Notes: generated from the letters alone by a model not told the origin. A stretch of 59,291 nt of DNA from an uncultured Gammaproteobacteria bacterium (GCA_964524895.1 CAZGFG010000004.1:20469-79759); one strand, 5' to 3'; shown: positions 8,477 to 24,569, counted from the first letter of the stretch. Translations and numbers: made by a program.

Positions 8477-8945
8477 TATTCCTATGTTTACTGGATTGAT
8501 CAAACTTCTGCCTGCAAAAGAAGTTTTTGCCCACTGCGATATTCCTTGTGGGATTTATGATCCGCATGAAATGCAATTGGCGGCCCATACAATCTTAAGA
8601 ATGGTTAATCTGATAAATGAAGCCGGTTCAGATGTTCATAAGGTTGCCAGGCTGACTAAAGTGAAGGAAGAACATGCAGAGAAAGTAAAGCATGAAGTAA
8701 GGGTTATTTGGGGAGATTATTTTAAAGAAGAGCACTTAAAAGATTATCCAAACCTGCATGAGTTGGTTTTTAGGATTATGAAACTTGCTTCTAAAGCCAA
8801 ACAAGAAGTTAGTGTTGAGGCAGCCGATGAGCTTTTAGAAAATACTCAAAAATTTGCCGAGATTTTTTATAAGACGAAAGGATTAGAACCGATTAGAATC
8901 AAATCTCCTTATCCGACAGCAGGTGAAATTGTTTCTTACAAGTGA
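8463..8945 (+). CDS. sodN: nickel superoxide dismutase precursor
   Basis: Ni-hook HCDIPCGIYDP after a short pro-sequence. Confidence 0.95.
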   Translation: MMAYNIPMFTGLIKLLPAKEVFAHCDIPCGIYDPHEMQLAAHTILRMVNLINEAGSDVHKVARLTKVKEEHAEKVKHEVRVIWGDYFKEEHLKDYPNLHELVFRIMKLASKAKQEVSVEAADELLENTQKFAEIFYKTKGLEPIRIKSPYPTAGEIVSYK

Positions 8946-12988: not shown

Positions 12989-13021
12989 ACCTAGAGATGT
13001 TTCGCCACGCTCAACATGACA
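12678..13021 (+). mobile_element. REP-like element whose two 28-bp arms enclose a GIY-YIG gene
   Basis: left arm TGTCGTTCCGAGTGAAACGAGGAATCTC (12678-12705); right arm GAGATGTTTCGCCACGCTCAACATGACA (12994-13021); arms are imperfect inverted repeats. Confidence 0.65.
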
Positions 13022-13030
13022 AACTGTCTT

Positions 13031-13099
13031 TGTCGTTCTAAGGCGAGGCCGAAGAAGCTCATGTTAATCTAGAGATTCTTCACTAAGTCTAGGATGACA
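13031..13099. repeat. empty copy of the TGTC-tagged palindromic element
   Basis: TGTCGTTC...GCTC, 11-bp spacer, GAGATTCTT...GATGACA. Confidence 0.8.
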
Positions 13100-13131
13100 G
13101 GTAGAGTCGGCTTTGTTATAATTCCAATCAC

Positions 13132-13205
13132 GGGCGGATAGCTCAATTGGTTAGAGCATCAATCTTATACATTGAACGTTCCTGGTTCGAGTCCAGGTCC
13201 GCCCA
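13132..13205 (+). tRNA. tRNA-Ile (anticodon UAU)
   Basis: cloverleaf: GGGCGGA/TCCGCCC acceptor, TCAAT-CT TAT AC-ATTGA anticodon arm, TTCGAGT T-loop; extended -10 TGTTATAAT at 13114-13122. Confidence 0.93.
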
Positions 13206-13281
13206 CAGCAAATACATGATTTAATGTGATAAAAGATCGACCCACCCCTAGTGGTTTTTCAGGTTCAGGTCCCATACTAAT

Positions 13282-14154
13282 TTATAACTCTTCTAATTTG
13301 ATCTTGCCTTCGCCGGCTTGGCCTTGCAAAAATTGCAGATATCTTTCAGTAGTTGATAACCTCTTATGCCCTGCCAATTTGGAAACTACTAGTAGGGAAG
13401 TACCGGATTGAAGTTGGTGGGCCACCCAGGTATGGCGCAAATCATTAACCTTGGCCCCTTTAATACCGGCAATTCTGAAATATCTGTCAATGGCAGTCCG
13501 GATATTTCTGATAAGAAGTGGTTTGCCGGTTTTGGTAATAAACAATGAATGGGATTGGGTTTTTGGCCTAATCTCCAAATATTTACCTACAGCTTCTGCT
13601 GCAGGTTTATTTAGAGGAATTATCCTTTCGTTGGCACCTTCAAAAGGGGGAACATGCAAAGTTGCAGATTCTGTTAGGTTAACATCTTCCACTCTAAGTT
13701 TGGAAAGCTCTCCAATCCTGATACCGGTTTGCAAAAGCAGCTCTATAACAGCCAACATCCTGATATCTGCTCTGGCAGCGTCTCTTAATGCCCGATATTC
13801 AAGCTTTGAGAGGATCCTGGGGGGTTTATTTTCAAATTTAGGGTGTTCTAAACCGGTGGCCGGGTCCTCATTGGTTATACCTGAAGATTTTAAGAATTTG
13901 AAAAAGGTTTTAGTAGAATTGGTTTTACGGGAGATGGATTTTGGGGTGTAGTTTTCTTTGGCTAGTTTGTCCATAAAAGCCTGCAGATCCTCGGTAGTAA
14001 CCTGATTTGGTTCGTTCTTTCCCAACCCCTCTAAGAACTTAACAAGTTGATCGATGTCCTTCCCGTAGGCTAAAATAGTAGCGGATGCGCGTGACCTACC
14101 TTTTAAATGTCCTATAAATTGCTGATGTGCATCTTTCAAAGATATCATTGGCAT
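13282..14154 (-). CDS. XerC/XerD-like tyrosine recombinase
   Basis: N-terminal SAM-like domain, TGIRIGE, DLRHTW, LAGH...TTERY; promoter TTGACA-N17-TACAAT just upstream. Confidence 0.92.
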   Translation of the reverse strand: MPMISLKDAHQQFIGHLKGRSRASATILAYGKDIDQLVKFLEGLGKNEPNQVTTEDLQAFMDKLAKENYTPKSISRKTNSTKTFFKFLKSSGITNEDPATGLEHPKFENKPPRILSKLEYRALRDAARADIRMLAVIELLLQTGIRIGELSKLRVEDVNLTESATLHVPPFEGANERIIPLNKPAAEAVGKYLEIRPKTQSHSLFITKTGKPLLIRNIRTAIDRYFRIAGIKGAKVNDLRHTWVAHQLQSGTSLLVVSKLAGHKRLSTTERYLQFLQGQAGEGKIKLEEL

Positions 14155-14208
14155 ATATTGTAAGTTTATAGGATATTGTTGTCAAGTAGAAAGGCACAAA
14201 TTAAAGCT

Positions 14209-14559
14209 ATGTTTAAAAAATTTGGGCTGGTAATAGTAACTATTTTGGTATTGGTAATTATTTACAACTTGATATCCCGAATTATAGATGCTGTTAAATC
14301 TGGAGAAAGGCTAAGCCAGTCTGCACAGCAGTTGCAAAAATTGGAAACGGAAAATAAGGAACTCAAAGAAAGATTGGAAGAGGTAAAATCCCAACTTTTT
14401 ATAGAAGAACAGGCCCGAAATAAATTGGGATTTTCCAAAAAAGGGGAAACCCTGGTCATTATTCCGGAGGAGAAGATTAAGCAAATATTAGGAGCTAGCC
14501 AATCTGCTCAACTTCGTTTACCCAACTGGCAAGGCTGGTTAAAACTATTTTTTCAGTGA
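14209..14559 (+). CDS. septum formation initiator (FtsL/DivIC family)
   Basis: TM helix, coiled coil, EEQARNKLG..KKGE motif. Confidence 0.85.
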   Translation: MFKKFGLVIVTILVLVIIYNLISRIIDAVKSGERLSQSAQQLQKLETENKELKERLEEVKSQLFIEEQARNKLGFSKKGETLVIIPEEKIKQILGASQSAQLRLPNWQGWLKLFFQ

Positions 14560-14566
14560 GTCTGTG

Positions 14567-14832
14567 TTGCGGGGGTGGGAGTTGAACCCACTGCCTCAAG
14601 ATTATGCTCCTACCCTGATTACTCAAGGGGTTGGACTATATCATCACCCCGACATTAGTCGGGGGCCCGGCGTGTAGTCTCTACGGGGTCCTTCGACTAT
14701 GCTCAGGACTTCCCTCGGATATTGTCCTAAATGTTTAGGGTGTCTACCGATATAGCCAGGTTTGCTCCGACAATTACTCATCGGAGGGCCCACTTCTACT
14801 AGCCTTGTGTGCAACCGTTACACTTCCCCGCG
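14567..14832 (-). tRNA. initiator-type tRNA-Met (CAU) interrupted by a group I intron; exons 14801-14832 and 14567-14606
   Basis: spliced product CGCGGGG...CAAGG CT|CAT AA TCTTG...GTGGG TTCAACT CCCAC CCCCGCA A, with the C1:A72 mismatch typical of initiators. Confidence 0.9.
14607..14800 (-). ncRNA. group I self-splicing intron, 194 nt, IC3-like, inserted between U33 and C34
   Basis: P1 GGCU/GGCC with U.G at the splice site, P2 with GUAA loop, P3 CCUGGC/GCCGGG, R GUAGAGACUA, S GAUAUAGUCC, P8, P9 with GUAA loop, terminal G. Confidence 0.92.
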
Positions 14833-14844
14833 ATAACATTAGGT

Positions 14845-14908
14845 ATTCTATGCCCAAGTTATCTTTATGTCAAGCTTTCTTGACATTTAATAAATACTAT
14901 TGTAGTAT
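14845..14908. promoter_or_regulatory. back-to-back divergent sigma70 promoters
   Basis: minus strand TTGACA-N17-TAGAAT (14873-14845) for the tRNA; plus strand TTGACA-N17-TAGTAT (14880-14908) for the HTH gene. Confidence 0.8.
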
Positions 14909-14929: not shown

Positions 14930-15610
14930 ATGATTCGTAAATTCAAAGAACACCAAAAAGCTTTATTTCTAAGACAGAATGGTAAAAGCATTCGGCAAAT
15001 AGCAAAGTTACTCAAAATAAGCCCTAGCACTGCTAGCAAATGGTGTAAACATATTAAGCTATCTCCTAAACAACAAGAATTTTTATTAAATAGTGAATCT
15101 AGAACCTCTCATTTAAGACGCCTAGCAAAACAATCTCATAGGAATAAATTGTTGAGGGTTAAAGAGTTAACTAGTGAAGCTAAAGCTGAAATTAAGCATC
15201 TTAATAAAAACGAACTATTTTTAACCGGTTTAGCACTTTATTGGGCAGAGGGATTTAAAAGTTTGAAGGAAGGGAGAGTGGGTTTCTGTAACTCAGATCC
15301 TAAAATGATTAAGTTTTTTATTAAATGGCTTAAAAGATCTTTTGATATAAAGCCGGAAGATTTAATTTTAAGGGCAGAATTTAATGAGTCTCATGAGTAT
15401 CGTAAGGAAGAGATAGAAAAGTTTTGGTCAAAAACTACTAGGATTCCGAAAGAACAGTTTGAGAGGTCTTTTTACCACAAATCTATATGGTTGAAGAGAT
15501 ATGAGAATCCAGAAAATTACTATGGAGTGTTAAGGATAAGAGTGCGTAAAAGCAGCGAGTTGCTGACTAGAATTAGAGGATGGATTGACGGTCTTAGATA
15601 TGCAGCCTAA
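14930..15610 (+). CDS. HTH + single-motif LAGLIDADG-like protein
   Basis: N-terminal HTH (SIRQIAKLLKISPSTASKW), LTGLALYWAEG, FCNSDP.MI.FF, YGVLRIRV. Confidence 0.7.
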   Translation: MIRKFKEHQKALFLRQNGKSIRQIAKLLKISPSTASKWCKHIKLSPKQQEFLLNSESRTSHLRRLAKQSHRNKLLRVKELTSEAKAEIKHLNKNELFLTGLALYWAEGFKSLKEGRVGFCNSDPKMIKFFIKWLKRSFDIKPEDLILRAEFNESHEYRKEEIEKFWSKTTRIPKEQFERSFYHKSIWLKRYENPENYYGVLRIRVRKSSELLTRIRGWIDGLRYAA

Positions 15611-15731
15611 GTTATAAGTAAACTTACATGCTAAAGCGATCTTTTTAAGTAACAGGTTCTAACAACTTGCAGCCCACAACAAATTCATTTTAGTCCTTGA
15701 AAAGTACTGAAATTGGTGATATCATAGCCTC

Positions 15732-15995
15732 ATGATTACCCAACAAGCTCAAATAAAAATAAATCTTCCGCTAGCTCTTAAAGAATTTTTGGAAAGTAAG
15801 GCTGGTAAATTTGGTATGCCTTTAGCAGGGTACATTAAACATTTAATGCTTAAAGATGTTGAAAATATGGATTATCCTGCCTTTGTACTCTCTGACAAGT
15901 CTGAAAGAGCCTTAAAAAAAGCCTTGAAGGAAAAAGATAAAGCTGTCCTTATTAAAAACAAGGAAGAGTTAGATAAGTTCTTTAAGGATCTGTGA
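15732..15995 (+). CDS. antitoxin-like ribbon-helix-helix protein
   Basis: QIKINLP..LKEFL...A...G...YIKHL; overlaps the downstream toxin gene. Confidence 0.7.
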   Translation: MITQQAQIKINLPLALKEFLESKAGKFGMPLAGYIKHLMLKDVENMDYPAFVLSDKSERALKKALKEKDKAVLIKNKEELDKFFKDL

Positions 15996-16333
15996 AACCT
16001 CTCAAGTTTAGTCCTGATGTATATAAAAAACTAAAGGAAATTCAACTTAAGAACGTAACTTTACATAAAAGAATTCAGAAACAACTATATTTGTTCATAA
16101 ACAATCCTCGCCATAAATCACTCCGTCTTCATAAAATCGAAAGGCGTGACAGCTTAAGTATTTGGAGTATCTCCATCGATAAAAGCTATAGAATGCTATA
16201 TAAAGAAAACGAAGTGATTTACTTCTTTGGTATAGGAACTCATGACGAAGTTTATAAGCGAAGCTTGAAGGCATCGCCGAAAGCTGAACTTTCAGGCTCT
16301 GCCTATAAGCGAGCTAGAAAGGTTTCCTTATAG
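15992..16333 (+). CDS. RelE/YafQ-like type II toxin with a C-terminal extension
   Basis: SLRLHKI, WSISI..SYR, IGTHDEVY. Confidence 0.8.
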   Translation: MKPLKFSPDVYKKLKEIQLKNVTLHKRIQKQLYLFINNPRHKSLRLHKIERRDSLSIWSISIDKSYRMLYKENEVIYFFGIGTHDEVYKRSLKASPKAELSGSAYKRARKVSL

Positions 16334-16337
16334 GAAG

Positions 16338-16371
16338 AATAGGTTCTAAAAGCATTCCTCCCTCGCAACCA
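16338..16371 (+). repeat. 34-bp direct repeat, copy 1 (tRNA-3'-end-like, att-like)
   Basis: AATAGGTTCTAAAAGCATTCCTCCCTCGCAACCA, identical to 21557-21590. Confidence 0.9.
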
Positions 16372-16464
16372 CGAACCACTCACTTTGTTCGGGTTCATGG
16401 CTACGCCACTTAATAAAAGTGACCTAGTATGTTTAGATAACTTTAATAGTTTGAGTGGTGAGGC

Positions 16465-16498
16465 AGGGGTGCACCGTCTGGTGCGCCCCTTCTTTTTT
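16465..16498 (+). terminator. intrinsic terminator
   Basis: AGGGGTGCACC-GTCT-GGTGCGCCCCT followed by TCTTTTTT. Confidence 0.8.
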
Positions 16499-16513
16499 GG
16501 CTAAAATATACTT

Positions 16514-16780
16514 GTGAATTTCTACTATGTTTATGTACTTCAAAGTCTGAAGCTAGATTGGATTTATGTAGGATCCACATCTGATCTTCGTCAAAGATTT
16601 AAAAGTCATAATAATGGAGAAAATTTATCTACTAAGGGATACAAACCGTTTAAATTGATTTTCTATGAAGCTTATTTAAGTAAGAAAGATGCCTTAAGAA
16701 GAGAAGAATATTTTAAAACCTCTAAAGGTAAAACTACTTTAAAAACTATGTTAAAAGAATATTTTTCTGGAAAATATTAA
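16514..16780 (+). CDS. GIY-YIG nuclease (second subfamily)
   Basis: YYVYVLQS..., YVGST.DL..R...HN.G, A..RE.YFK. Confidence 0.9.
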   Translation: MNFYYVYVLQSLKLDWIYVGSTSDLRQRFKSHNNGENLSTKGYKPFKLIFYEAYLSKKDALRREEYFKTSKGKTTLKTMLKEYFSGKY

Positions 16781-16789
16781 ACTAAATTT

Positions 16790-17377
16790 GTGATAAATAA
16801 ATTCAAAAAGCTCTCCCTGCCCGTAAAAATGATTTTCGTTGTTGCTATAGCTCTACTCTTCATTGCCATTTTATTCATTGGGCTAATTGCCTATGATTTA
16901 TACAATGAACCATGGGAACATAATCGGCTACCAGCACTACTTACAAACAGTATAAAGATGACTGTGGTTGATAGTAGTCTTTATCAAGATCCCCAGTATG
17001 CCAACGGAGATAACTGCACACCTGACCAACTTGAGGTTATATTTAAGTATGTAACAGAACCTTCTGGTAAAACTTATGGAAAAGCTGGTCCGTATCCTAG
17101 ATGTTTAAGATATTCAGTAGAAAAAGGTGCTTTTTATTGGTTAGAGCCAAGACCAGGTTTTGAATATGTTATTTATGAAAAACCTTCCGGTGACCGTTTA
17201 TTAGCTATTCATGACAATGGATTGTATGGAAAAGATCGTAATGATATAGGAGGGCTAAATGGAAGCTATTATCCAGGTACGAGCTCTTTCAACATGCTAG
17301 GTAATAGAAAAAATGTGATTTTTGTCTATACAGGATGGAATAATCCTGAAAAAATCATCAAGCTGTCAATTAATTAA
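16790..17377 (+). CDS. membrane-anchored hypothetical protein
   Basis: N-terminal TM helix then a soluble domain with two Cys. Confidence 0.6.
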   Translation: MINKFKKLSLPVKMIFVVAIALLFIAILFIGLIAYDLYNEPWEHNRLPALLTNSIKMTVVDSSLYQDPQYANGDNCTPDQLEVIFKYVTEPSGKTYGKAGPYPRCLRYSVEKGAFYWLEPRPGFEYVIYEKPSGDRLLAIHDNGLYGKDRNDIGGLNGSYYPGTSSFNMLGNRKNVIFVYTGWNNPEKIIKLSIN

Positions 17378-17559
17378 ACTTTGGGAAAATAAAAATTTCT
17401 AATATCCTGCAAACCCCGCAACACTTCGACTGGCTACGCTCGCTCAGGGCTAAAGCTATGTATTTTAGCCTTAAATTTCTTCCATAGGGATTGGACATCC
17501 GAGCTTGATTAAGACTTATAGTTTTGGTATTTATCTTTCATTGTTTTATAATCTCATAT

Positions 17560-18570
17560 ATGGAAAGACAATTTACCGGAATATATTACGGACCCAACAC
17601 AACGAGAACTGCCGAACAATATGCTTCAGAATGGAGAAGTACTGGATTAGGTACAATTGATGATTTGATCTTAGAACAACTTCAAATTGCGGATACTTCG
17701 GGTCGGCAAGTTGTCCGACTTTTAGACATCGGTAGCGAGAGGTTTGCTACAGCACTACGAGGTTTAGTTAGAAATCCAAAAGACCTGCCTCAATCACGTC
17801 AATTCATGCAGACTCATTCTAGTTTGAGTTTGGACTTAATTGGTCTAACTGACACCTCATCGAATTTTGAGTTTGGTACTCCAGTATTTGTACAAGATTC
17901 AACTGATCCAAACTTTGATGCTTCCTTAAGAATAACCCCCTACACTTTAAGTGCGAAGCAGTCTTTAAATGACTTTTTAAATCAACAGGGCAAAAGAGAT
18001 ATTCAAATAGCCACAGCTATCTGGAGTTTGGCCTATATGGGGCCAAATACTTTTTCAGAAGTTTTATCAAATGTAAGTCAAGCTTTAACACAAAATGGTT
18101 TGTTCGTAGGTGTAGGTTATGCAGAGGCAGTGGCAGGATTGGGTTTTAATGTTATTTTTGATTTATATCCTGAGCTAGCCTATTTGCAAAGAAAAAATTC
18201 ACTTCTTACCCCATCTAATTGGAGAGATATTCTGGGTAAATCAGAAAAACAGCCAATTGAACTAGATAATCAGAGATTAGCGGAAACTAAAGTGACTCTA
18301 AGTCAAAGCATTAGCACTCTATTAAGAACTAATATCATTAATTCTAGTGTTGCCAGACAATTAGAAGAAAGTATCTGGACAAGTTCAGGTATTAATGATT
18401 TAGCTTTGGTGGGTTCAGAGTTACAAATTCCTCTTTTTGAGTTATGGAAGAAGAAATTTAGTCTTTTAAAAGAAAAAAAAGATGCTAAAATACGCTCATT
18501 AACTGAGAATTCAAATGATATTATCGTTACAACCGATTTCCAACAGACAATTGTTGTTGAAAAAAAGTAA
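17560..18570 (+). CDS. divergent class I SAM methyltransferase-fold protein
   Basis: VRLLDIGS, AIWSLAY, ALTQNGLFVGV; start at ATG 17560, 7 nt after TATAAT. Confidence 0.55.
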   Translation: MERQFTGIYYGPNTTRTAEQYASEWRSTGLGTIDDLILEQLQIADTSGRQVVRLLDIGSERFATALRGLVRNPKDLPQSRQFMQTHSSLSLDLIGLTDTSSNFEFGTPVFVQDSTDPNFDASLRITPYTLSAKQSLNDFLNQQGKRDIQIATAIWSLAYMGPNTFSEVLSNVSQALTQNGLFVGVGYAEAVAGLGFNVIFDLYPELAYLQRKNSLLTPSNWRDILGKSEKQPIELDNQRLAETKVTLSQSISTLLRTNIINSSVARQLEESIWTSSGINDLALVGSELQIPLFELWKKKFSLLKEKKDAKIRSLTENSNDIIVTTDFQQTIVVEKK

Positions 18571-18949
18571 CATTTCTGAGCGGTTAAAACAAAAAATTCC
18601 TTTATTCACTAATATCGATCGTGGTTTATATTCAATACTTGATTTATCAGGTTTTATCATTCCTGAAGGAATAATTGAACTTTATAGATCAGAATTAGAG
18701 GCAAAATTAGGGCACTATGTTGTTAGTTATGACGCGGAAATCTGCAATTTAGAAGTACCATTAGAAGCTCACTTATGTGCTCGAGTGAAGGATGCTGATC
18801 TAAATCCAGAACAAAAAAAAGTCTTAAAATCCTATGAGAACTTATCCAAACCATTAGGAGTAACATTTGTGGTTTATCAAAATCCGATTGAATATATTGA
18901 TCCTTATAAAAGTGCAATTTATTCTCTATATCAAGAGAAAGCTAAATAA
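18515..18949 (+). CDS. hypothetical protein (start uncertain)
   Basis: 144-aa ORF in an operon-like run; its stop overlaps the next start. Confidence 0.5.
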   Translation: MILSLQPISNRQLLLKKSNISERLKQKIPLFTNIDRGLYSILDLSGFIIPEGIIELYRSELEAKLGHYVVSYDAEICNLEVPLEAHLCARVKDADLNPEQKKVLKSYENLSKPLGVTFVVYQNPIEYIDPYKSAIYSLYQEKAK

Positions 18950-19614
18950 TGAAAAAAAAGATTTATGCGATTTGTTTTAGTGGGGGAAAAGACTCAATGT
19001 TGGCTCTGGATCGAGCAATCAGGAATGATCTAAGTGTTAAATATCTAGTTAACATTTATGATACTGGTACTGAAAGAGTGAGATTCCATGGATTTAAAAA
19101 AGAACTTCTAAAAAAACAAACAGATGCTCTAGGACTTGAATTAGTGCAGGCTGGATCAACTGGAGAAAATTTCGAACAGGTTTTTATGGATGGATTGAAA
19201 ACCTTAAAGAGAAAAGGTGTGAATGGGGTTATTTTTGGGGATATTCATTTGCAGGATGTCAAAAGTTGGTTTGAAGAGAGAACTACTGGAATGGGTTTTG
19301 AGCATGTCGAACCTCTATGGCTGGTACCTCCACTTGAATTAGTCTCAGAAGTAGTCGCGCGAGGATATAAGATTACACTAACTAGTTTGGATTTAGAGAA
19401 AACAAATCCAGAATGGTTAGGAAAACAAATCACACCTAAGTTAATTAAAGAGTTTGTTGCAAAAGGGATAGATCCATGTGGTGAAAATGGAGAATATCAC
19501 TCATTTGTTAGCGATGGTCCGCTTTTTAAACAGCAAATTGAATTTAAACTGGGAACTATCCGCAAAACTCCGACTCATGCGGTAATTGATGTTATTATAA
19601 AAGACTCTAAATAA
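18949..19614 (+). CDS. diphthine-ammonia ligase (Dph6/MJ0570)-family PP-loop ATPase
   Basis: FSGGKDS, IFGDI, EPLW, DPCGENGEYHSFV.DGPLF. Confidence 0.92.
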   Translation: MKKKIYAICFSGGKDSMLALDRAIRNDLSVKYLVNIYDTGTERVRFHGFKKELLKKQTDALGLELVQAGSTGENFEQVFMDGLKTLKRKGVNGVIFGDIHLQDVKSWFEERTTGMGFEHVEPLWLVPPLELVSEVVARGYKITLTSLDLEKTNPEWLGKQITPKLIKEFVAKGIDPCGENGEYHSFVSDGPLFKQQIEFKLGTIRKTPTHAVIDVIIKDSK

Positions 19615-20555
19615 TGGAAAGTATTAGACAGCCTTCGATGAAAGTTGGTATTGTTTTATCTTTGGGTCAGCTTGAACATCGAGGGTCACCATTGACATAC
19701 CTAGAACTGCGTGATCGGGCCCAGCAAGCTGAAAGTTTGGGATTTGATTCTTTGTGGGTGTATGATCACTTGTTAGAACGATACCCTGGTAAAGAAACTG
19801 TTGGTTTCAAAGAATCCTGGACGATTTTATCCGCCTTGGCTGAAGTAACCCAAAAACCAGAGCTTGGTACTGGGGTACTAAGTACGACATTTCGTAATCC
19901 GGCATTACTCGCTAAAATGGCTGATACTCTAGAAGAGGTAAGTAATGGCAGGTTAATTTTGGGTTTAGGTGCTGGTTGGCATAAGCCAGAATTCAATGTG
20001 TTTGGATTCGAATATAATAATCGAGCTTCCCGTTTTGAAGAGGCACTGCAAATAATTAAACCTTTATTGCGTGATGGATATGTTGATTTTAGAGGCAAAT
20101 ATTATCAAGCTCAGGATTGTGAATTAAAACCGCATACAAAAATAAGAGAGGGTGGCCCTCCCTTAATGATAGCCTCCTTCCAGCCTAAAATGTTACACTT
20201 GACTGCGCAATATGCTCAGGGGTGGATTACCGATTGGTTAGGGGGGAAAGAACACTTTAACGAAAGAAAGCAAGCGATCATTAATGCTTGTTTGGAGGTG
20301 GGGAGAAACCCTCCAACATTGGAACTAATTGGTGGAGTAACTATCGCATACCCTGAATTGGGCCCATTACCATCTTGGATGACAAGTTCTGATCAATATT
20401 TTTCTGGATCTCCGCAGGATATTGCTAAAAGTTTGGATACTTATCGAAAATGGGGTGTGTCACATATTATGTGCTCTTATTATCCGGATATACCTCAATC
20501 TCTGAATCAGCTAGGCCAAGCATTAGATATCTTTCGAACTAGCCAATTGGATTAA
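19614..20555 (+). CDS. LLM-class flavin-dependent oxidoreductase
   Basis: GFDSLWVYDH, FRNPALLAKMA.TL, SNGRLILGLGAGW. Confidence 0.93.
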   Translation: MESIRQPSMKVGIVLSLGQLEHRGSPLTYLELRDRAQQAESLGFDSLWVYDHLLERYPGKETVGFKESWTILSALAEVTQKPELGTGVLSTTFRNPALLAKMADTLEEVSNGRLILGLGAGWHKPEFNVFGFEYNNRASRFEEALQIIKPLLRDGYVDFRGKYYQAQDCELKPHTKIREGGPPLMIASFQPKMLHLTAQYAQGWITDWLGGKEHFNERKQAIINACLEVGRNPPTLELIGGVTIAYPELGPLPSWMTSSDQYFSGSPQDIAKSLDTYRKWGVSHIMCSYYPDIPQSLNQLGQALDIFRTSQLD

Positions 20556-20556
20556 T

Positions 20557-21558
20557 GTGAAGATCGAATTAGACATTAAAAGTGACGCGTCACTCAGGGT
20601 TTTAAATTCAATAAAGGTCGTTCTTAATGATAAAAAAGCTGACGCTTTGTTACTTAGTGGCGGGATAGATTCAAGTATTCTGGCAGGACTCGATCCTGCT
20701 ACTCCAGCAATAACTGTAGGAATTGAGAATGAATCATCAGATCTTCTTTATGCTCAGAAAGTAACTGAAAGATTAAATATGCCTTGGCATCATGTCCAGG
20801 TTTCAAGAGGTCAAGCTTTACGCGCTGTAAGTGATGTTATGATCCTCATAAACACTTATGATTTGGGAATTTTTAATATGGCTGTTGAGTATCTCGGTTT
20901 CAGATATGCTAGTTCTTTAGGTTATCAAACTATTAGAACAGGAGATTTTGCTGATGAGTTATTCCGAGGATATAGTTTTCTTTATACTCAATCAGACGAA
21001 GAGCACAAAAATCATCTAACTGATCTCTATCCACACGTCAGATTACCATCCTCAATAATCGCACAGGCTTTAGGAGTAAAAACAGATTTTCCCTATTTAA
21101 AGCTCCCAACTTTTGATGCAGCTCTCTCTGTATCGAAATCGGACTTGGTTGTAGATGTTGAAACAAATCATGCAGGAGATATTTATGAAGCTGAACGAGA
21201 TGAAAATACTTCTCCAACAAGGACATGGAGTAAACTCGCTCTTCGACAAGCTGGACTTGGTATGCTTCCTTTAGATGTAGTATTTAGGCAAAAAACTCAT
21301 GTGGAGTATGGTTCAGGTTTTAAAAATCTAGAAAATGAAGTAGCTGACTCTATAACTGATAAAGAAGTTGAAGATTTGAAGATCGAGAAAAGATTTTTTG
21401 ATAAAGTGCATGCAGGACTATATAAAATGTATAAAAACTTAGGTCTTAGTCCCACGTTCCCAAAAGATAATCAATACGCTTGTTCGTGGTGTGGAGGTGG
21501 TGTTAATACTGGGCGAAATCATTGTTCAACATGCGGAGGCTATCCTTCAAATAGCTAA
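20557..21558 (+). CDS. asparagine synthase C-terminal (PP-loop) domain protein with a C-terminal Zn ribbon; no glutaminase domain
   Basis: LLSGGIDSS, GDFADELFRGY, W.K..LR, CSWC...CSTC. Confidence 0.85.
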   Translation: MKIELDIKSDASLRVLNSIKVVLNDKKADALLLSGGIDSSILAGLDPATPAITVGIENESSDLLYAQKVTERLNMPWHHVQVSRGQALRAVSDVMILINTYDLGIFNMAVEYLGFRYASSLGYQTIRTGDFADELFRGYSFLYTQSDEEHKNHLTDLYPHVRLPSSIIAQALGVKTDFPYLKLPTFDAALSVSKSDLVVDVETNHAGDIYEAERDENTSPTRTWSKLALRQAGLGMLPLDVVFRQKTHVEYGSGFKNLENEVADSITDKEVEDLKIEKRFFDKVHAGLYKMYKNLGLSPTFPKDNQYACSWCGGGVNTGRNHCSTCGGYPSNS

Positions 21559-21590
21559 TAGGTTCTAAAAGCATTCCTCCCTCGCAACCA
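21557..21590 (+). repeat. 34-bp direct repeat, copy 2
   Basis: identical to 16338-16371. Confidence 0.9.
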
Positions 21591-21685
21591 ACTTGGAAGA
21601 CCTTCGCAAGCCACATTTTATCAGATTATAGGCTTGTCTGCTAATATTTGTTTGGAGATTATTTTTCTGGTACACTTAGGCTCAC

Positions 21686-21756
21686 GGCAGTGTAGCTTAA
21701 CGGCAAAGCAGTGCCCTCATAAAGCACGGATGAAGGTTCGACTCCTTCCATTGCCA
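21686..21756 (+). tRNA. tRNA-Met (CAU), probably elongator
   Basis: GGCAGTG/CATTGCC acceptor, GTGCC-CT CAT AA-AGCAC arm (31:39 C.A mismatch), GAAGG-TTCGACT-CCTTC T arm. Confidence 0.88.
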
Positions 21757-21788
21757 CTAGAGATTAGAAAGCTGTAAAGGTTAACAAA

Positions 21789-22994
21789 GTGATTTTATAC
21801 GAATTTGAAGGCAAAAAACTTCTTTCTCAAGCCGGGATAAATATTCCCAAAAGTGAGTTATTAGAGTTTGCAGATGGGCAAATAACCATCAGTAACCCCC
21901 TTATTTTAAAAGCTCAAGTTCTATCCGGTGAAAGGGCACAGGCAGGAGGAATTATTCGAATTCAGAATTCAGAATTCAGAATTATGGATGAAGTACAGAA
22001 ATTATTCGGAAAAATTATCAACAAAGAAAAAGTAGAAAAGATTTTGGTGGAGGAGATGGTTAATTTTGAAAAGGAGTTTTATGTTTCCCTTTCTTATGAT
22101 ACTGATACCAGGGGTCCGATTCTGACTATTTCACAGCAAGGGGGAACCGGAATAGAGGAGCGGGATGTTAAAATTTTTCCGATTGATCCACTAACCGAAT
22201 CTGTCATTCCGAGTAATAGCGAGGAATCTCAAAACTTAAATCAGGAGATTTTTCACTTTGTTCGAAATGATATAACTAAAAAATTGGTTAGTCTGTTTTT
22301 CAAGCAGGACTGCCTTCTTTTGGAGATAAATCCACTGGTTCTAACAAAGGGTGGAATTTGGATGGCTTTGGATGCCAAGATTAAACTGGATGATGATGCC
22401 CGTTCCCGCCACCCGGAGTGGGACTTTGCCCCCAGGGGTGTCCCCGGCTATACACCTACCCCCAGCGAGATTGCCGCCAAAAAAATTGATGAAGGAGATT
22501 ATAGAGGAGTAGCCGGTTCGACCTATTTCGACCTCCCCGGCAATATTGCCATTATGTCTTCCGGAGGGGGAGTATCCCTGACAGCTATGGATGCCCTGAT
22601 TGCTGCAGGGGGAAAGCCTGCCAATTTTACCGAATATTCAGGTAATCCGCCCAAGGAAAAGGTGACTAAATTAACCAAGATAGTTTTAAACAAGCCTGAT
22701 ATTGCTGGACTTTGGGTCATTGGGACAGTAGCAGCCAATTTTACAGATATTTATGAAACTTTGTCGGGTTTAATTGAAGGCCTTCGACAAGCTCAGGCTG
22801 AACTTGGTACCAAGTTCAAGTTCCCAATAGTAATTAGAAGGGGAGGACCAAGGGACGAGGAAGCTTTTGGAATGTTAAAACAAGTTAAAGACTTTGATTT
22901 ACATCTGCAAGGCAAGGAGACAACTATTACTCAATCAGCCCAAACAATGGCACGACTGGCAGCAGAATTTGCTCAAAAAGGAGAAGAAAAATGA
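21789..22994 (+). CDS. ATP-citrate lyase/citryl-CoA synthetase beta-like subunit (ATP-grasp plus citrate-binding-type domain)
   Basis: LYEFEGK, LEINPL, LDAK, SGGGVS, ANFTEYSGNP, ANFTDI. Confidence 0.8.
   Translation: MILYEFEGKKLLSQAGINIPKSELLEFADGQITISNPLILKAQVLSGERAQAGGIIRIQNSEFRIMDEVQKLFGKIINKEKVEKILVEEMVNFEKEFYVSLSYDTDTRGPILTISQQGGTGIEERDVKIFPIDPLTESVIPSNSEESQNLNQEIFHFVRNDITKKLVSLFFKQDCLLLEINPLVLTKGGIWMALDAKIKLDDDARSRHPEWDFAPRGVPGYTPTPSEIAAKKIDEGDYRGVAGSTYFDLPGNIAIMSSGGGVSLTAMDALIAAGGKPANFTEYSGNPPKEKVTKLTKIVLNKPDIAGLWVIGTVAANFTDIYETLSGLIEGLRQAQAELGTKFKFPIVIRRGGPRDEEAFGMLKQVKDFDLHLQGKETTITQSAQTMARLAAEFAQKGEEK
22202..22272. repeat. TGTC-tagged palindromic element inserted within the coding sequence
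   Basis: TGTCATTCCGAGTAATAGCGAGGAATCTC-N14-GAGATTTTTCACTTTGTTCGAAATGATA; left arm nearly identical to 12678-12705. Confidence 0.85.
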
Positions 22995-23893
22995 GCCTAC
23001 TTTTGCCAGTTGGGGCCAAAATAATCGGTCAGGGAATTACCGGAGGAGAGGGGTCCAAGATGTTGCCAAAGATGCTTTCTTACGGCACCAATATTGTTGC
23101 CGGAGTAACCCCCGGTAAAGGGGGACAACAGCTTGAGGGCGTACCGATATTTAACTCTATCAAAGAAGCTATAGAAGTAGTTGGGGCAGTTGACGGATCT
23201 GTCCAATTTGTTCCTCCACAGTTTGTTAAAGCCGCTACCCAGGAAGCCATAGAAAGTGGAATTAAATTTATTTTAATCGGAGCAGAAAAGGTTCCTACCA
23301 AAGATGCTGCCTACATTTATGCTTTAGCCAAAAAAGAAGGAGTTTCTATCATAGGTCCAAACTCGGTTGGGTTAATCTCTCCTCATCGCCATTTTAGGAT
23401 TGGGCTAATTGGAGGAATGGTTTCCGAAAATGTGTTTGCAGACGGGCCTATTGCAGTTATTTCCAAATCCGGCAGTATGACAGCGGAGATTAGCCTGATT
23501 TTGAAAAATGCAGGGTTGGGGGTTTCCTGGGCAGTAGGGATAGGTGGGGACCGGATAATCGGCACTGATTATGTGGATTTCCTACTGGAGCTGGAAAACG
23601 ACCCTGCAACCAAGGCTTCGGTGATTTTTGGGGAACTGGGAGGAACTTATGAAGAAAGAGTGGCAGAATATATTAAATCCGGAAAAATAAAAAAGCCGGT
23701 GGTAGCATTTATTGGAGGGGAGTTTACCCTAAAATTGCCTTCGGAGGTGCAATTTGGGCATGCAGGAGCTATTATAGAAGGCAGTAGAGGCTTACCTGAT
23801 CACAAAAGACAGGTGCTTAAGGAAGCAGGGGTTAAAGTTGCTGAAAGTTTGGATGATATTGGTACACTAGTAAAGGAATCTTTAAATGGCTAA
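22991..23893 (+). CDS. SucD/AclA-N-like CoA ligase alpha subunit
   Basis: QGITGGEG, AGVTPGKGG, IGPNSVG, SKSGS, FGHAGA phospho-His. Confidence 0.88.
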   Translation: MSLLLPVGAKIIGQGITGGEGSKMLPKMLSYGTNIVAGVTPGKGGQQLEGVPIFNSIKEAIEVVGAVDGSVQFVPPQFVKAATQEAIESGIKFILIGAEKVPTKDAAYIYALAKKEGVSIIGPNSVGLISPHRHFRIGLIGGMVSENVFADGPIAVISKSGSMTAEISLILKNAGLGVSWAVGIGGDRIIGTDYVDFLLELENDPATKASVIFGELGGTYEERVAEYIKSGKIKKPVVAFIGGEFTLKLPSEVQFGHAGAIIEGSRGLPDHKRQVLKEAGVKVAESLDDIGTLVKESLNG

Positions 23894-24569
23894 AACAATA
23901 ACTCATAAAATCGGAAACGACGAGACAACTACTGCCATGTTTGGGGATCAGGATCACCTGGAATATGCTCAAGGTCACAGTTTTTCCCAAACTATTTTTG
24001 AGGCTTTAGTTGAAAGGCAGCCTTCGGAAAACGAGACAAAGCTTTTGGATCTAATCCTCAATCTCTCTTTTGACCATGGTCCAAATTCTCCTTCCTCCTC
24101 CAAGACTATAGAAGAAGCTAAAGAAGGGGAAGCTATGGGTGAGGCTGTCGGGGAGGGGATTGAGCAGATAAATGAGCATCATGGAGGCGCAGGAGAGCCT
24201 TTGATGGAGGCACTTTATAGAATTAAGAATGAGGAATTCAGAATTCAGAATTATGTTGAGCAGAATATACAGGGAGGAAAGAGGGTTCCGGGGTTGGGGC
24301 ATAGGGTATACAAAGATAAAGACCCCAGGGCCGAGTTGATAATGGAAAAAGCTTTGCAGCTTGGGGTAGGGGGGGATTTTATAGGGGTAATAAGGGAGAT
24401 AAGGGGAGAGGTAGAAAAACAGACAGGTAAAAGTTTAGCGGTCAATATTGATGGGGCTATAGCAGCGGTTTTTTGTGGGTTTGGTTTGGAGCCCAAAGCT
24501 GCAACCGCAATATTTATAATTGCCCGAACTGTAGGATTAACTGCTCACTATATGGACAGTTCTAAGTAG
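23886..24569 (+). CDS. citryl-CoA lyase / citrate synthase-like protein
   Basis: DHGP, HGGA, VPGLGHRVYK..DPR, NIDGAIAA, ARTVGL.AH. Confidence 0.88.
   Translation: MAKTITHKIGNDETTTAMFGDQDHLEYAQGHSFSQTIFEALVERQPSENETKLLDLILNLSFDHGPNSPSSSKTIEEAKEGEAMGEAVGEGIEQINEHHGGAGEPLMEALYRIKNEEFRIQNYVEQNIQGGKRVPGLGHRVYKDKDPRAELIMEKALQLGVGGDFIGVIREIRGEVEKQTGKSLAVNIDGAIAAVFCGFGLEPKAATAIFIIARTVGLTAHYMDSSK

Follow-up and report, generated by a model that had tools for sequence, protein, structure and literature searches.

Integrons gather genes as arrays of cassettes that end in attC, imperfect palindromes of 57-141 nt that fold as single strands, and these arrays are anchored at an attI site; clusters of attC sites without an integrase (CALINs) are acted on in trans. 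To our knowledge, few mobile elements have been described in bacteria of the candidate phyla radiation (CPR, or Patescibacteria), whose genomes are tiny and whose gain of accessory genes is poorly understood. Islands seeded by tycheposons in Prochlorococcus lie next to tRNA genes and are built of successive insertions split by partial tRNAs, with degenerated remnants and element-associated inversions (bioRxiv 10.1101/2020.12.28.424599). According to two reports on Acinetobacter dif modules and on integrative mobile elements exploiting Xer (IMEX), these modules are small and recombinase-less, often encode toxin-antitoxin (TA) pairs, are bounded by sites of ~28 bp, shuffle from replicon to replicon and are moved by the host Xer proteins in trans (PMC13141974, PMC6449649). 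Here, we describe a cassette array in a stretch of 59,291 nt deposited under an uncultured Gammaproteobacteria bacterium (GCA_964524895.1 CAZGFG010000004.1:20469-79759; this whole stretch is called the window below). The interval from 14.9 to 21.7 kb is best explained as one form of a hypervariable hot spot that Daviesbacteria-like CPR bacteria have at their initiator-tRNA gene (tRNA-fMet), which serves as its anchor. It carries four copies of a conserved 26-nt site, TTCTAACAKC-N7-CCCCGCAAC, whose right half copies the 3' end of tRNA-fMet. We propose, with a probability of about 0.6, that the array arose by tandem accretion of integrase-less cassettes through site-specific recombination at this tRNA-end core, catalysed in trans.

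The array resembles the known kinds of element yet belongs to none of them. Like the tycheposon islands, it is a tRNA-adjacent hot spot in which stacked insertions are separated by partial tRNA copies. Unlike tycheposons and classical islands, which carry their own tyrosine recombinase, it has none that could be seen; its modules measure 0.7-4 kb with mostly 1-5 genes, the host belongs to the CPR, and a conserved junction arm of 10-13 nt is common to unrelated cassettes and to lineages with different tRNAs. Of a classical tRNA island or prophage, the direct repeats of the 3' part of a tRNA are present but the integrase inside is absent; the sites of the window do not lie downstream of, and co-oriented with, tRNA-fMet, whereas ~17 related loci have their sites in this arrangement. 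Integrons and CALINs share with the array small, mostly co-oriented, site-terminated cassettes, a diverse and TA-rich cargo, and a divergent tyrosine recombinase at one end. The site described here is not attC, however, being tRNA-derived, fixed at 26 nt and devoid of a dyad or detectable structure; moreover, the anchor is a tRNA 3' end in place of attI, promoter-like sites lie within the TA cassette and the operon, and the adjacent recombinase is not IntI-like by model scores. The dif modules, too, are small, recombinase-less and often of the TA type, host Xer use being here only a candidate. A pdif site, however, is a dif-like 11-6-11 dyad in which Xer proteins bind two 11-bp arms on either side of a 6-bp spacer, and neighbouring pdif sites point in opposite directions; the sites of the array are direct repeats without a dyad that copy a tRNA end, and no GC-skew switch is found at the window locus.

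Four related sites in the window

The window contains an exact 34-bp direct repeat, AATAGGTTCTAAAAGCATTCCTCCCTCGCAACCA, whose two copies (sites 2 and 4; Table 1) lie on the plus strand, 5219 bp apart from start to start. None of 100 sequence shuffles gave such a match, even with up to three mismatches allowed, and the repeat stands exactly as the initial annotation of this DNA had reported it. The same annotation had correctly pointed out that CCTCCCTCGCAAC and CCACCCCCGCAAC, from the ends of the repeat and of tRNA-fMet, agree at 11 of 13 positions. The pattern TTCTAA-N12-20-CNCAAC was located at 15657, 16344, 17397 and 21563 on the plus strand, one occurrence for each of four sites; altogether five matches were found in the window where 0.46 were expected. 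The fifth match, on the minus strand at 8814-8840, runs antisense within an open reading frame (ORF) and is probably fortuitous.

To keep the search free of circularity, we trained a model, R1, on sequence alone, with 43 instances taken from other genomes and none from the window, and ran it on the window with filters off. R1 recovered the four sites (E-values in Table 1) and the 3' end of tRNA-fMet itself (14563-14580, minus strand, E 1.4e-3, model positions 20-37). Nothing else in the window was matched, the next best hit having an E-value of 0.27. Since the training set lay outside the window, these E-values mark all four copies as genuine members of one family. The degenerate copies previously suspected at about 15653-15681 and 17396-17424 are thus real (sites 1 and 3). 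An 11-bp identity noted at the same time, CCCCGCAACAC, does exist: plus-strand positions 17414-17424 share it with the 3' end of the minus-strand tRNA-fMet gene.

All four sites are co-oriented, and each lies 4-40 nt past a stop codon. Sites 2 and 4, which bound a unit of 5219 bp, end in ...GCAACCA like the tRNA-fMet genes of some relatives, whereas the resident tRNA-fMet ends in ...GCAACAC; hence the two sites were not copied from the resident tRNA end. As they are identical over 34 bp and depart from the family consensus in the same way, they must be copies of one another, and one may ask if a local segmental duplication or gene conversion made this repeat, the weaker copies being chance and no cassette system existing. 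We find this hardly credible, given that a model trained elsewhere recovers all four copies, that dozens of independent contigs have members of the family at this one hot spot, and that the DNA flanking the two 34-mers is unrelated. A further stretch, at 16796-16829, may be a decayed cassette boundary: its identity to the 34-mer is 65%, and its position weight matrix (PWM) score of 2.3 bits is below the shuffle maximum of 8.5 and not significant alone.

A family of tRNA-end sites

An exact-pattern scan of metagenome contigs identified 71 loci, ~50 of them in a low-GC CPR-like context. The family consensus reads aATAaaaG-TTCTAACATCATTCCACCCCCGCAAC-ac, and the span from TTCTAA to CAAC is fixed at 26 nt. 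Each site consists of an arm of 10-13 nt, (A/G)GGTTCTAACAKC, and a copy of 14-16 nt of the tRNA-fMet end, ...TCCNNCCCCGCAAC; the terminal 14-18 nt of every site match the tRNA-fMet 3' end. Aligned in full, the site corresponds to the last 27 nt of the tRNA with two insertions, GGTTC[T]AAC[ATCA]TCCCACCCCCGCAACAC. In most scored cases, a same-strand ORF stops 1-35 nt ahead of the site. When 1.29 Mb of loci flanking genes for an ATP-citrate-lyase (ACL)-like protein were searched with R1, the matches amounted to 11 near-full-length sites, a few arm-only fragments and tRNA-fMet 3' ends, and all of them fell between the DivIC gene and tRNA-Met.

The sites have no shared RNA structure (folding z-scores from -1.4 to +2.4), and no Rfam family matches them even at E<=1. 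Inspection of the consensus, AGGTTCTAACATCATTCCACCCCCGCAAC, disclosed no dyad beyond GGTT/AACC. The idea that the sites are RNA elements or terminators was therefore rejected: there is no common fold, no significant stability and no Rfam match, and the terminators lie 22-95 nt further on.

A hypervariable interval next to the initiator tRNA gene

The proteins, tRNAs and site motif of the window were mapped onto 80 loci of relatives (labelled L followed by a number, for contigs or loci from other genomes). By its sequence, the host is a Daviesbacteria-like CPR bacterium; the best relatives of its ACL-like protein, at no more than 65% identity, are in metagenome-assembled genomes of Daviesbacteria and other Microgenomates. 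One core order is kept in 21 species: a type IV secretion system (T4SS)-like ATPase, tRNA-Ile(UAU), a Xer-like tyrosine recombinase on the minus strand, DivIC on the plus strand, tRNA-fMet, the variable region, tRNA-Met and ACL. The Xer-like, DivIC and tRNA-fMet genes are adjacent in 21 loci.

Presence or absence of modules in relatives had been set beforehand as a test of the proposed boundaries. Relatives do differ clearly in the modules that they have at this locus, and the region between tRNA-fMet and tRNA-Met grows from ~40 bp in L070 to 1.4 kb in L033 and, in the window, to 6.85 kb (in round figures, 6.9 kb). Across relatives it is filled mainly with GIY-YIG genes, a helix-turn-helix (HTH) protein, TA pairs and mixed cargo. 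The strand of tRNA-fMet varies between relatives, and an intron in this gene is frequent. In the window, G+C content is 32-37% over 15-19 kb against ~41% elsewhere. Both associations that had been looked for are present: the repeat goes closely with a tRNA and, among Daviesbacteria, also with a tyrosine recombinase kept in synteny. In the 1.29 Mb of related loci, R1 matches are confined to the hot spot.

Modules differ in order and neighbours between genomes

The sequences found downstream of CCCCGCAAC fall into few classes, each of which follows a genuine tRNA-fMet in some genomes and a site in others. One class, a trailer plus a terminator placed ahead of a GIY-YIG gene, comes after the tRNA in L106, L066 and L060, but a site precedes it in the window (site 2), L067 and L139; its hairpin shows compensatory changes among relatives. 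The ACTTCGACT...CGCTCAGTGCAGGC class stands behind the tRNA in L062 and L074 and behind a site in the window (site 3), L032, L068, L106 and L160. The third, ACAGTGGTAGTTTAGATTG plus a hairpin, follows the tRNA in L032 and L083, and a site in L074, L068, L110, L122 and L152. In a further class, a GIY-YIG gene starts directly. Alignment showed that homology extends rightward from the core and is absent leftward, where either the tRNA body or the cassette arm stands.

The boundaries of the TA cassette are preserved. In the window, L060 and L063 it starts 3-8 nt past CAAC, each time with another gene upstream, and in the window, L080, L083 and L141 its right end is a site; its neighbours differ between genomes. 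The order of modules changes as well, being HTH protein, TA, trailer in the window and HTH protein, trailer, TA in L063.

A second lineage with tRNA-Gln

The family is also found in a different low-GC CPR-like lineage (L161, 7043-10160; L104; L100), where four sites with the same arm, AAACAGGTTCTAACATCGTCC, lie behind tRNA-Gln(CTG), between ftsEX and obg. The 3' part is tRNA-Gln-like (AGCCCCAGC) in three of the four, the remaining one having an fMet-type core, and behind the last site stands a copy of the downstream flank of tRNA-Gln. The acceptor strand CCCCGCA is common to tRNA-Gln and tRNA-fMet. Since the same arm occurs behind a different tRNA, the arm belongs to the cassettes while the core tracks the local tRNA. 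This modifies the earlier reading of the repeats as relic att sites of repeated integration: serial integration is supported, but the sites are a conserved, cassette-borne family and not decaying relics of the resident tRNA.

A wider version of the proposal, which we regard as tentative and well short of even odds, would make this an integron-like capture system of the CPR. Cassettes, some with promoters of their own, would end in a 26-nt mimic of a tRNA 3' end and would be captured by, and shuffled among, the 3' ends of tRNA genes of the CCCCGCA type (fMet in Daviesbacteria, Gln in another lineage) by a chromosomal recombinase, of the Xer family or unrecognised, acting in trans, and inverted cores would flip the tRNA gene.

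A candidate recombinase and a proposed mechanism

The Xer-like gene just outside the array (Table 1) is, by position, the only candidate enzyme in view. Its product does not reach the cut-off of any of the NCBIfam models for XerC, XerD and XerA, yet is closer to these than to integron integrase. The latter identity was discarded because the scores, 68.6 bits for TIGR02249 (cut-off 265) and 35.6 for NF011946 (cut-off 435), are far too low. No Xer paralogue is encoded in the window, and searches with Pfam and NCBIfam revealed no recombinase between 14.9 and 21.7 kb, as had been claimed from the start. Among 3003 ORFs, a tyrosine-recombinase profile matched only the syntenic Xer gene and two unrelated genes, none of them inside an array. 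A Pfam census of the cargo near sites likewise contained no recombinase family, and neither a recombinase of the tycheposon type nor tycheposon hallmark genes were present near sites. We also considered whether the locus holds a dif-like site or a replication terminus and rejected this idea, GC skew being positive across the window and no palindrome being seen between tRNA-Ile and the Xer-like gene.

In the mechanism that we propose, small cassettes without an integrase would each end in the 26-nt site, the TA cassette and the operon bringing their own promoter-like sites. A recombinase encoded outside the array would join the core (CCCCGCA-A/G-C) of a circular cassette to the tRNA 3' end or to an existing site; as insertion could occur at either, cassettes would stack in tandem. 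Two co-oriented cores could also excise the DNA between them. The circular form, the position of the crossover and the nature of the enzyme are parts of the scheme that we infer, and action in trans is suggested by the existence of arrays without a recombinase.

Several observations weigh against accretion by site-specific recombination. The arrays of the window, L063 and L145 are on the 5' side of tRNA-fMet and divergent from it, a topology that simple integration at the 3' end does not predict. It could have arisen if the tRNA core recombined with a site core facing the opposite way, which would invert the DNA, or if the 5' acceptor strand, read as its reverse complement (CCCCGCG), served as a pseudo-core; alternatively, any existing site might seed an array. 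The recombinase is linked to the sites by synteny alone, and the Xer-like gene is also found beside near-empty hot spots (L070, L033); the contig with the tRNA-Gln array has no Xer homologue. Three pattern scans of IMG/VR for a phage or plasmid attP with the site returned only chance matches in coding regions or nothing. No sequence is conserved rightward of the core, an unusual state for a two-armed tyrosine-recombinase core site. Neither a same-species pair of empty and occupied loci nor a circular junction was recovered. Logan contigs (k=31) break at the 34-mer: those with exact matches to the ACL-like, Asn-synthase-like, HTH and DivIC proteins all end at the 34-bp repeat or at tRNA-Met and are therefore uninformative on variants, and exact Logan look-ups of the Xer-like and GIY-YIG proteins gave nothing. 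Lastly, L122/L154 and L141 share a methyltransferase cassette of 645 bp at 94% identity (L122:3442-4085, L141:511-1155), the flanking GIY-YIG genes being only ~65% identical, which points to a probable recent transfer. The left boundary of this cassette is at the GIY-YIG stop codon and has no core, so homologous exchange probably contributes to at least this case.

Taken further, this last conclusion leads to an explanation in which the sites are kept for some other reason and in which sites, tRNA, trailers and GIY-YIG genes are merely portable homologies for RecA-type exchange after DNA uptake, with no dedicated recombinase. The coreless breakpoint of the methyltransferase cassette would fit such exchange, as would the lack of any recombinase in or near the arrays besides the core-syntenic Xer and the misfit of tRNA orientation and window topology with simple integration; on the other hand, a homology of 26-34 bp is marginal for RecA, and integrase att junctions are recognised by just such direct repeats, in which a tRNA 3' end is fused to a conserved arm from the element. 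Moreover, the arm is conserved across lineages using different tRNAs, and no other function of the sites is apparent, there being neither a shared RNA fold nor a terminator. On balance, we consider exchange by RecA unlikely as the origin of the arrays.

If accretion at the tRNA-end core is correct, a recognisable 26-nt site at a predictable locus would offer a handle for cataloguing the flexible genes of CPR bacteria (TA pairs, methyltransferases, small enzymes). The site would also help in the search for the recombinase and in testing whether a housekeeping Xer protein additionally serves as a cassette integrase. An att-like site is a possible landing pad, should CPR bacteria become genetically tractable.

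Contents of the array and the split initiator tRNA gene

The features of the locus are collected in Table 1. The modules between the sites are those described in the initial annotation: a TA pair, a GIY-YIG gene with a membrane protein gene, and a five-gene operon.

Table 1. Sites, genes and other features of the hot spot and its borders, in window coordinates
Feature	Position	Strand	Evidence or remark
tRNA-Ile(UAU)	13132-13206	+	
Xer-like tyrosine recombinase, 290 aa, candidate trans-acting enzyme	13282-14154	-	Pfam Phage_integrase 5e-28 plus SAM-like N-terminal domain
DivIC	14176-14559	+ (in core order of relatives)	
Initiator tRNA-Met(CAT) (tRNA-fMet); 3' end CCCACCCCCGCAAC is the sequence copied by the sites	14567-14832	-	Exon 1, 14832-14801; intron, 14800-14607; exon 2, 14606-14567
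HTH226, 226-aa protein with N-terminal HTH and C-terminal domain of unrecognised fold	14930-15610	+	First array-side gene, divergent from tRNA-fMet; Pfam HTH_23 2.9e-7
Site 1, degenerate, 2 nt shorter, core CCCACAAC	15650-15680	+	R1 match 15650-15675, E 5.5e-3; gapped alignment to consensus
TA cassette: promoter-like TTGAAA-17-TATCAT, 87-aa antitoxin (15732-15995), 113-aa RelE/ParE-like toxin (15992-16333)	15697-16333	+	NCBIfam RelE_StbE 3.5e-5, Pfam ParE_like, promoter scan
Site 2, left copy of 34-bp repeat	16338-16371	+	R1 E 7.2e-5; starts 5 nt past toxin stop codon (16331-16333)
tRNA-fMet trailer-like segment (126 nt) with intrinsic terminator at its end (GGGGTGCACCGTCTGGTGCGCCCC, then T run)	16372-16497	+	Homology, terminator scan
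Small GIY-YIG nuclease-domain protein, 88 aa	16514-16780	+	Pfam GIY-YIG 2.9e-17
Predicted membrane protein, 195 aa, no family match	16790-17377	+	Last gene ahead of site 3; homologues precede a site in L074, L060, L123
Possible decayed site, weak, AATAAATTCAAAAAGCTCTCCCTGCCCGTAAAAA	16796-16829	+	Between GIY-YIG stop codon and probable true start (ATG 16829) of membrane protein
Site 3, nearest to family consensus, core CCCCGCAACAC equal to resident tRNA-fMet end	17389-17424	+	R1 34.8 bits, E 8.4e-10; PWM 45 bits
Trailer-type segment, ACTTCGACT...CGCTCAGGGC, with terminator-like hairpin	17425-17472	+	
Five-gene operon with own promoter-like site: two unknown proteins, Dph6-like ATP pyrophosphatase, LLM/F420-type oxidoreductase, Asn-synthase-like protein	17524-21558	+	
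Site 4, right copy of 34-bp repeat (21557-21590)	21556-21591	+	R1 E 2.6e-5; R1 match overlaps stop codon of last operon gene
tRNA-Met(CAT), taken as elongator; conserved right border of hot spot	21686-21757	+	ARAGORN, Rfam 63.6 bits; precedes ACL-like gene in relatives

Homologues of the TA cassette follow sites in L060, L063, L080, L083, L123 and L141, and most relatives have GIY-YIG genes beside tRNA-fMet or a site. No homologues of the five-gene operon occur in any mapped related locus; the operon's Asn-synthase-like protein has a Cys-rich C-terminal tail. Elsewhere the cargo near sites is diverse and TA-rich, with PIN, Fic/DOC, YafQ, MazE, RelE, methyltransferases, DJ-1, S26 peptidase, NUDIX, Macro and Nramp. 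A promoter scan placed divergent promoter-like sites at ~14845-14908.

The tRNA-fMet gene that had served for the original comparison is real, with the correction that it is intron-split and on the minus strand. Its 194-nt intron is an ORF-less group I intron (Rfam RF00028, 52.9 bits; gathering score, 50) located in the anticodon loop past position 33, between CU and CAUAA. ARAGORN missed the unspliced gene and called the spliced exons as a 73-nt tRNA-Met(CAT) with a C1xA72 mismatch. About 13 of ~30 scored related tRNA-fMet genes carry the intron. The adjacent HTH226 gene has 263 homologues, the named ones coming from Patescibacteria/Daviesbacteria. It occurs in the window and in L057, L063, L072, L130, L230 and L022, and in six loci it was scored as lying 96-119 nt upstream of, and divergent from, an intron-bearing tRNA-fMet; overall it accompanies 6-7 of the ~13 intron-bearing genes and none of the 17 intronless ones. 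HTH226 may be an intron-associated factor. Its AlphaFold2 (AF2) model, with a predicted local distance difference test score (pLDDT) of 87, gave no structural match at E<0.01 in the PDB or BFVD. A role as LAGLIDADG homing endonuclease was not supported, as sequence searches of Pfam, PHROGs and the PDB yielded HTH only, and no fold match was obtained.

The position of these genes raises the possibility that the mobility is driven by a nuclease, with the GIY-YIG protein or HTH226 cutting at or near the tRNA-fMet end or the sites and repair of the double-strand break copying neighbouring genes in. In most Daviesbacteria loci, tRNA-fMet or a site does have a GIY-YIG gene at its side, HTH226 keeps strictly to intron-bearing tRNA-fMet genes, and a documented precedent exists in SegB, reported as a free-standing homing endonuclease of the phage T4 tRNA region (PMC2330249). 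However, the GIY-YIG proteins, at 88-103 aa, consist of the catalytic domain only and have no DNA-binding domain, HTH226 has no recognisable nuclease fold, homing does not generate direct repeats of its target, and the contig with the tRNA-Gln array has neither protein by homology to the window genes. These facts make a nuclease-driven process quite improbable in comparison with accretion at the tRNA-end core.

Other observations at the locus

In SRR4343435, a Logan contig (L001:1) starts 16 nt to the right of site 4 and has A at position 21607 where the window has C, a variant that hints at an alternative sequence leftward. Short filler repeats, TTCGACT...CGCTCAGTGCAGGC / TTCGCCACGCTCAACATGACA and TTCGAC...GCTCAGTGCAGGC, recur intergenically in the window (12990-13110, 17425-17450) and in L141 (~480-520), and may be miniature insertion elements. 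The L141 site is interrupted by a filler repeat of ~27 nt between its arm, GTTCTAAC, and its core, CCCCCGCAAC; the near-identical site of L122 is intact.

To the right of the hot spot, positions 21789-24569 on the plus strand encode a three-gene ATP-citrate-lyase / citryl-CoA-like set (ATP-grasp, CoA-ligase and citrate-synthase domains) that adjoins the hot spot across Microgenomates. On the left, a tRNA-Ile with UAU anticodon precedes the Xer-like gene syntenically in at least 15 relatives, and its conservation suggests that AUA is decoded without lysidine in the host lineage.

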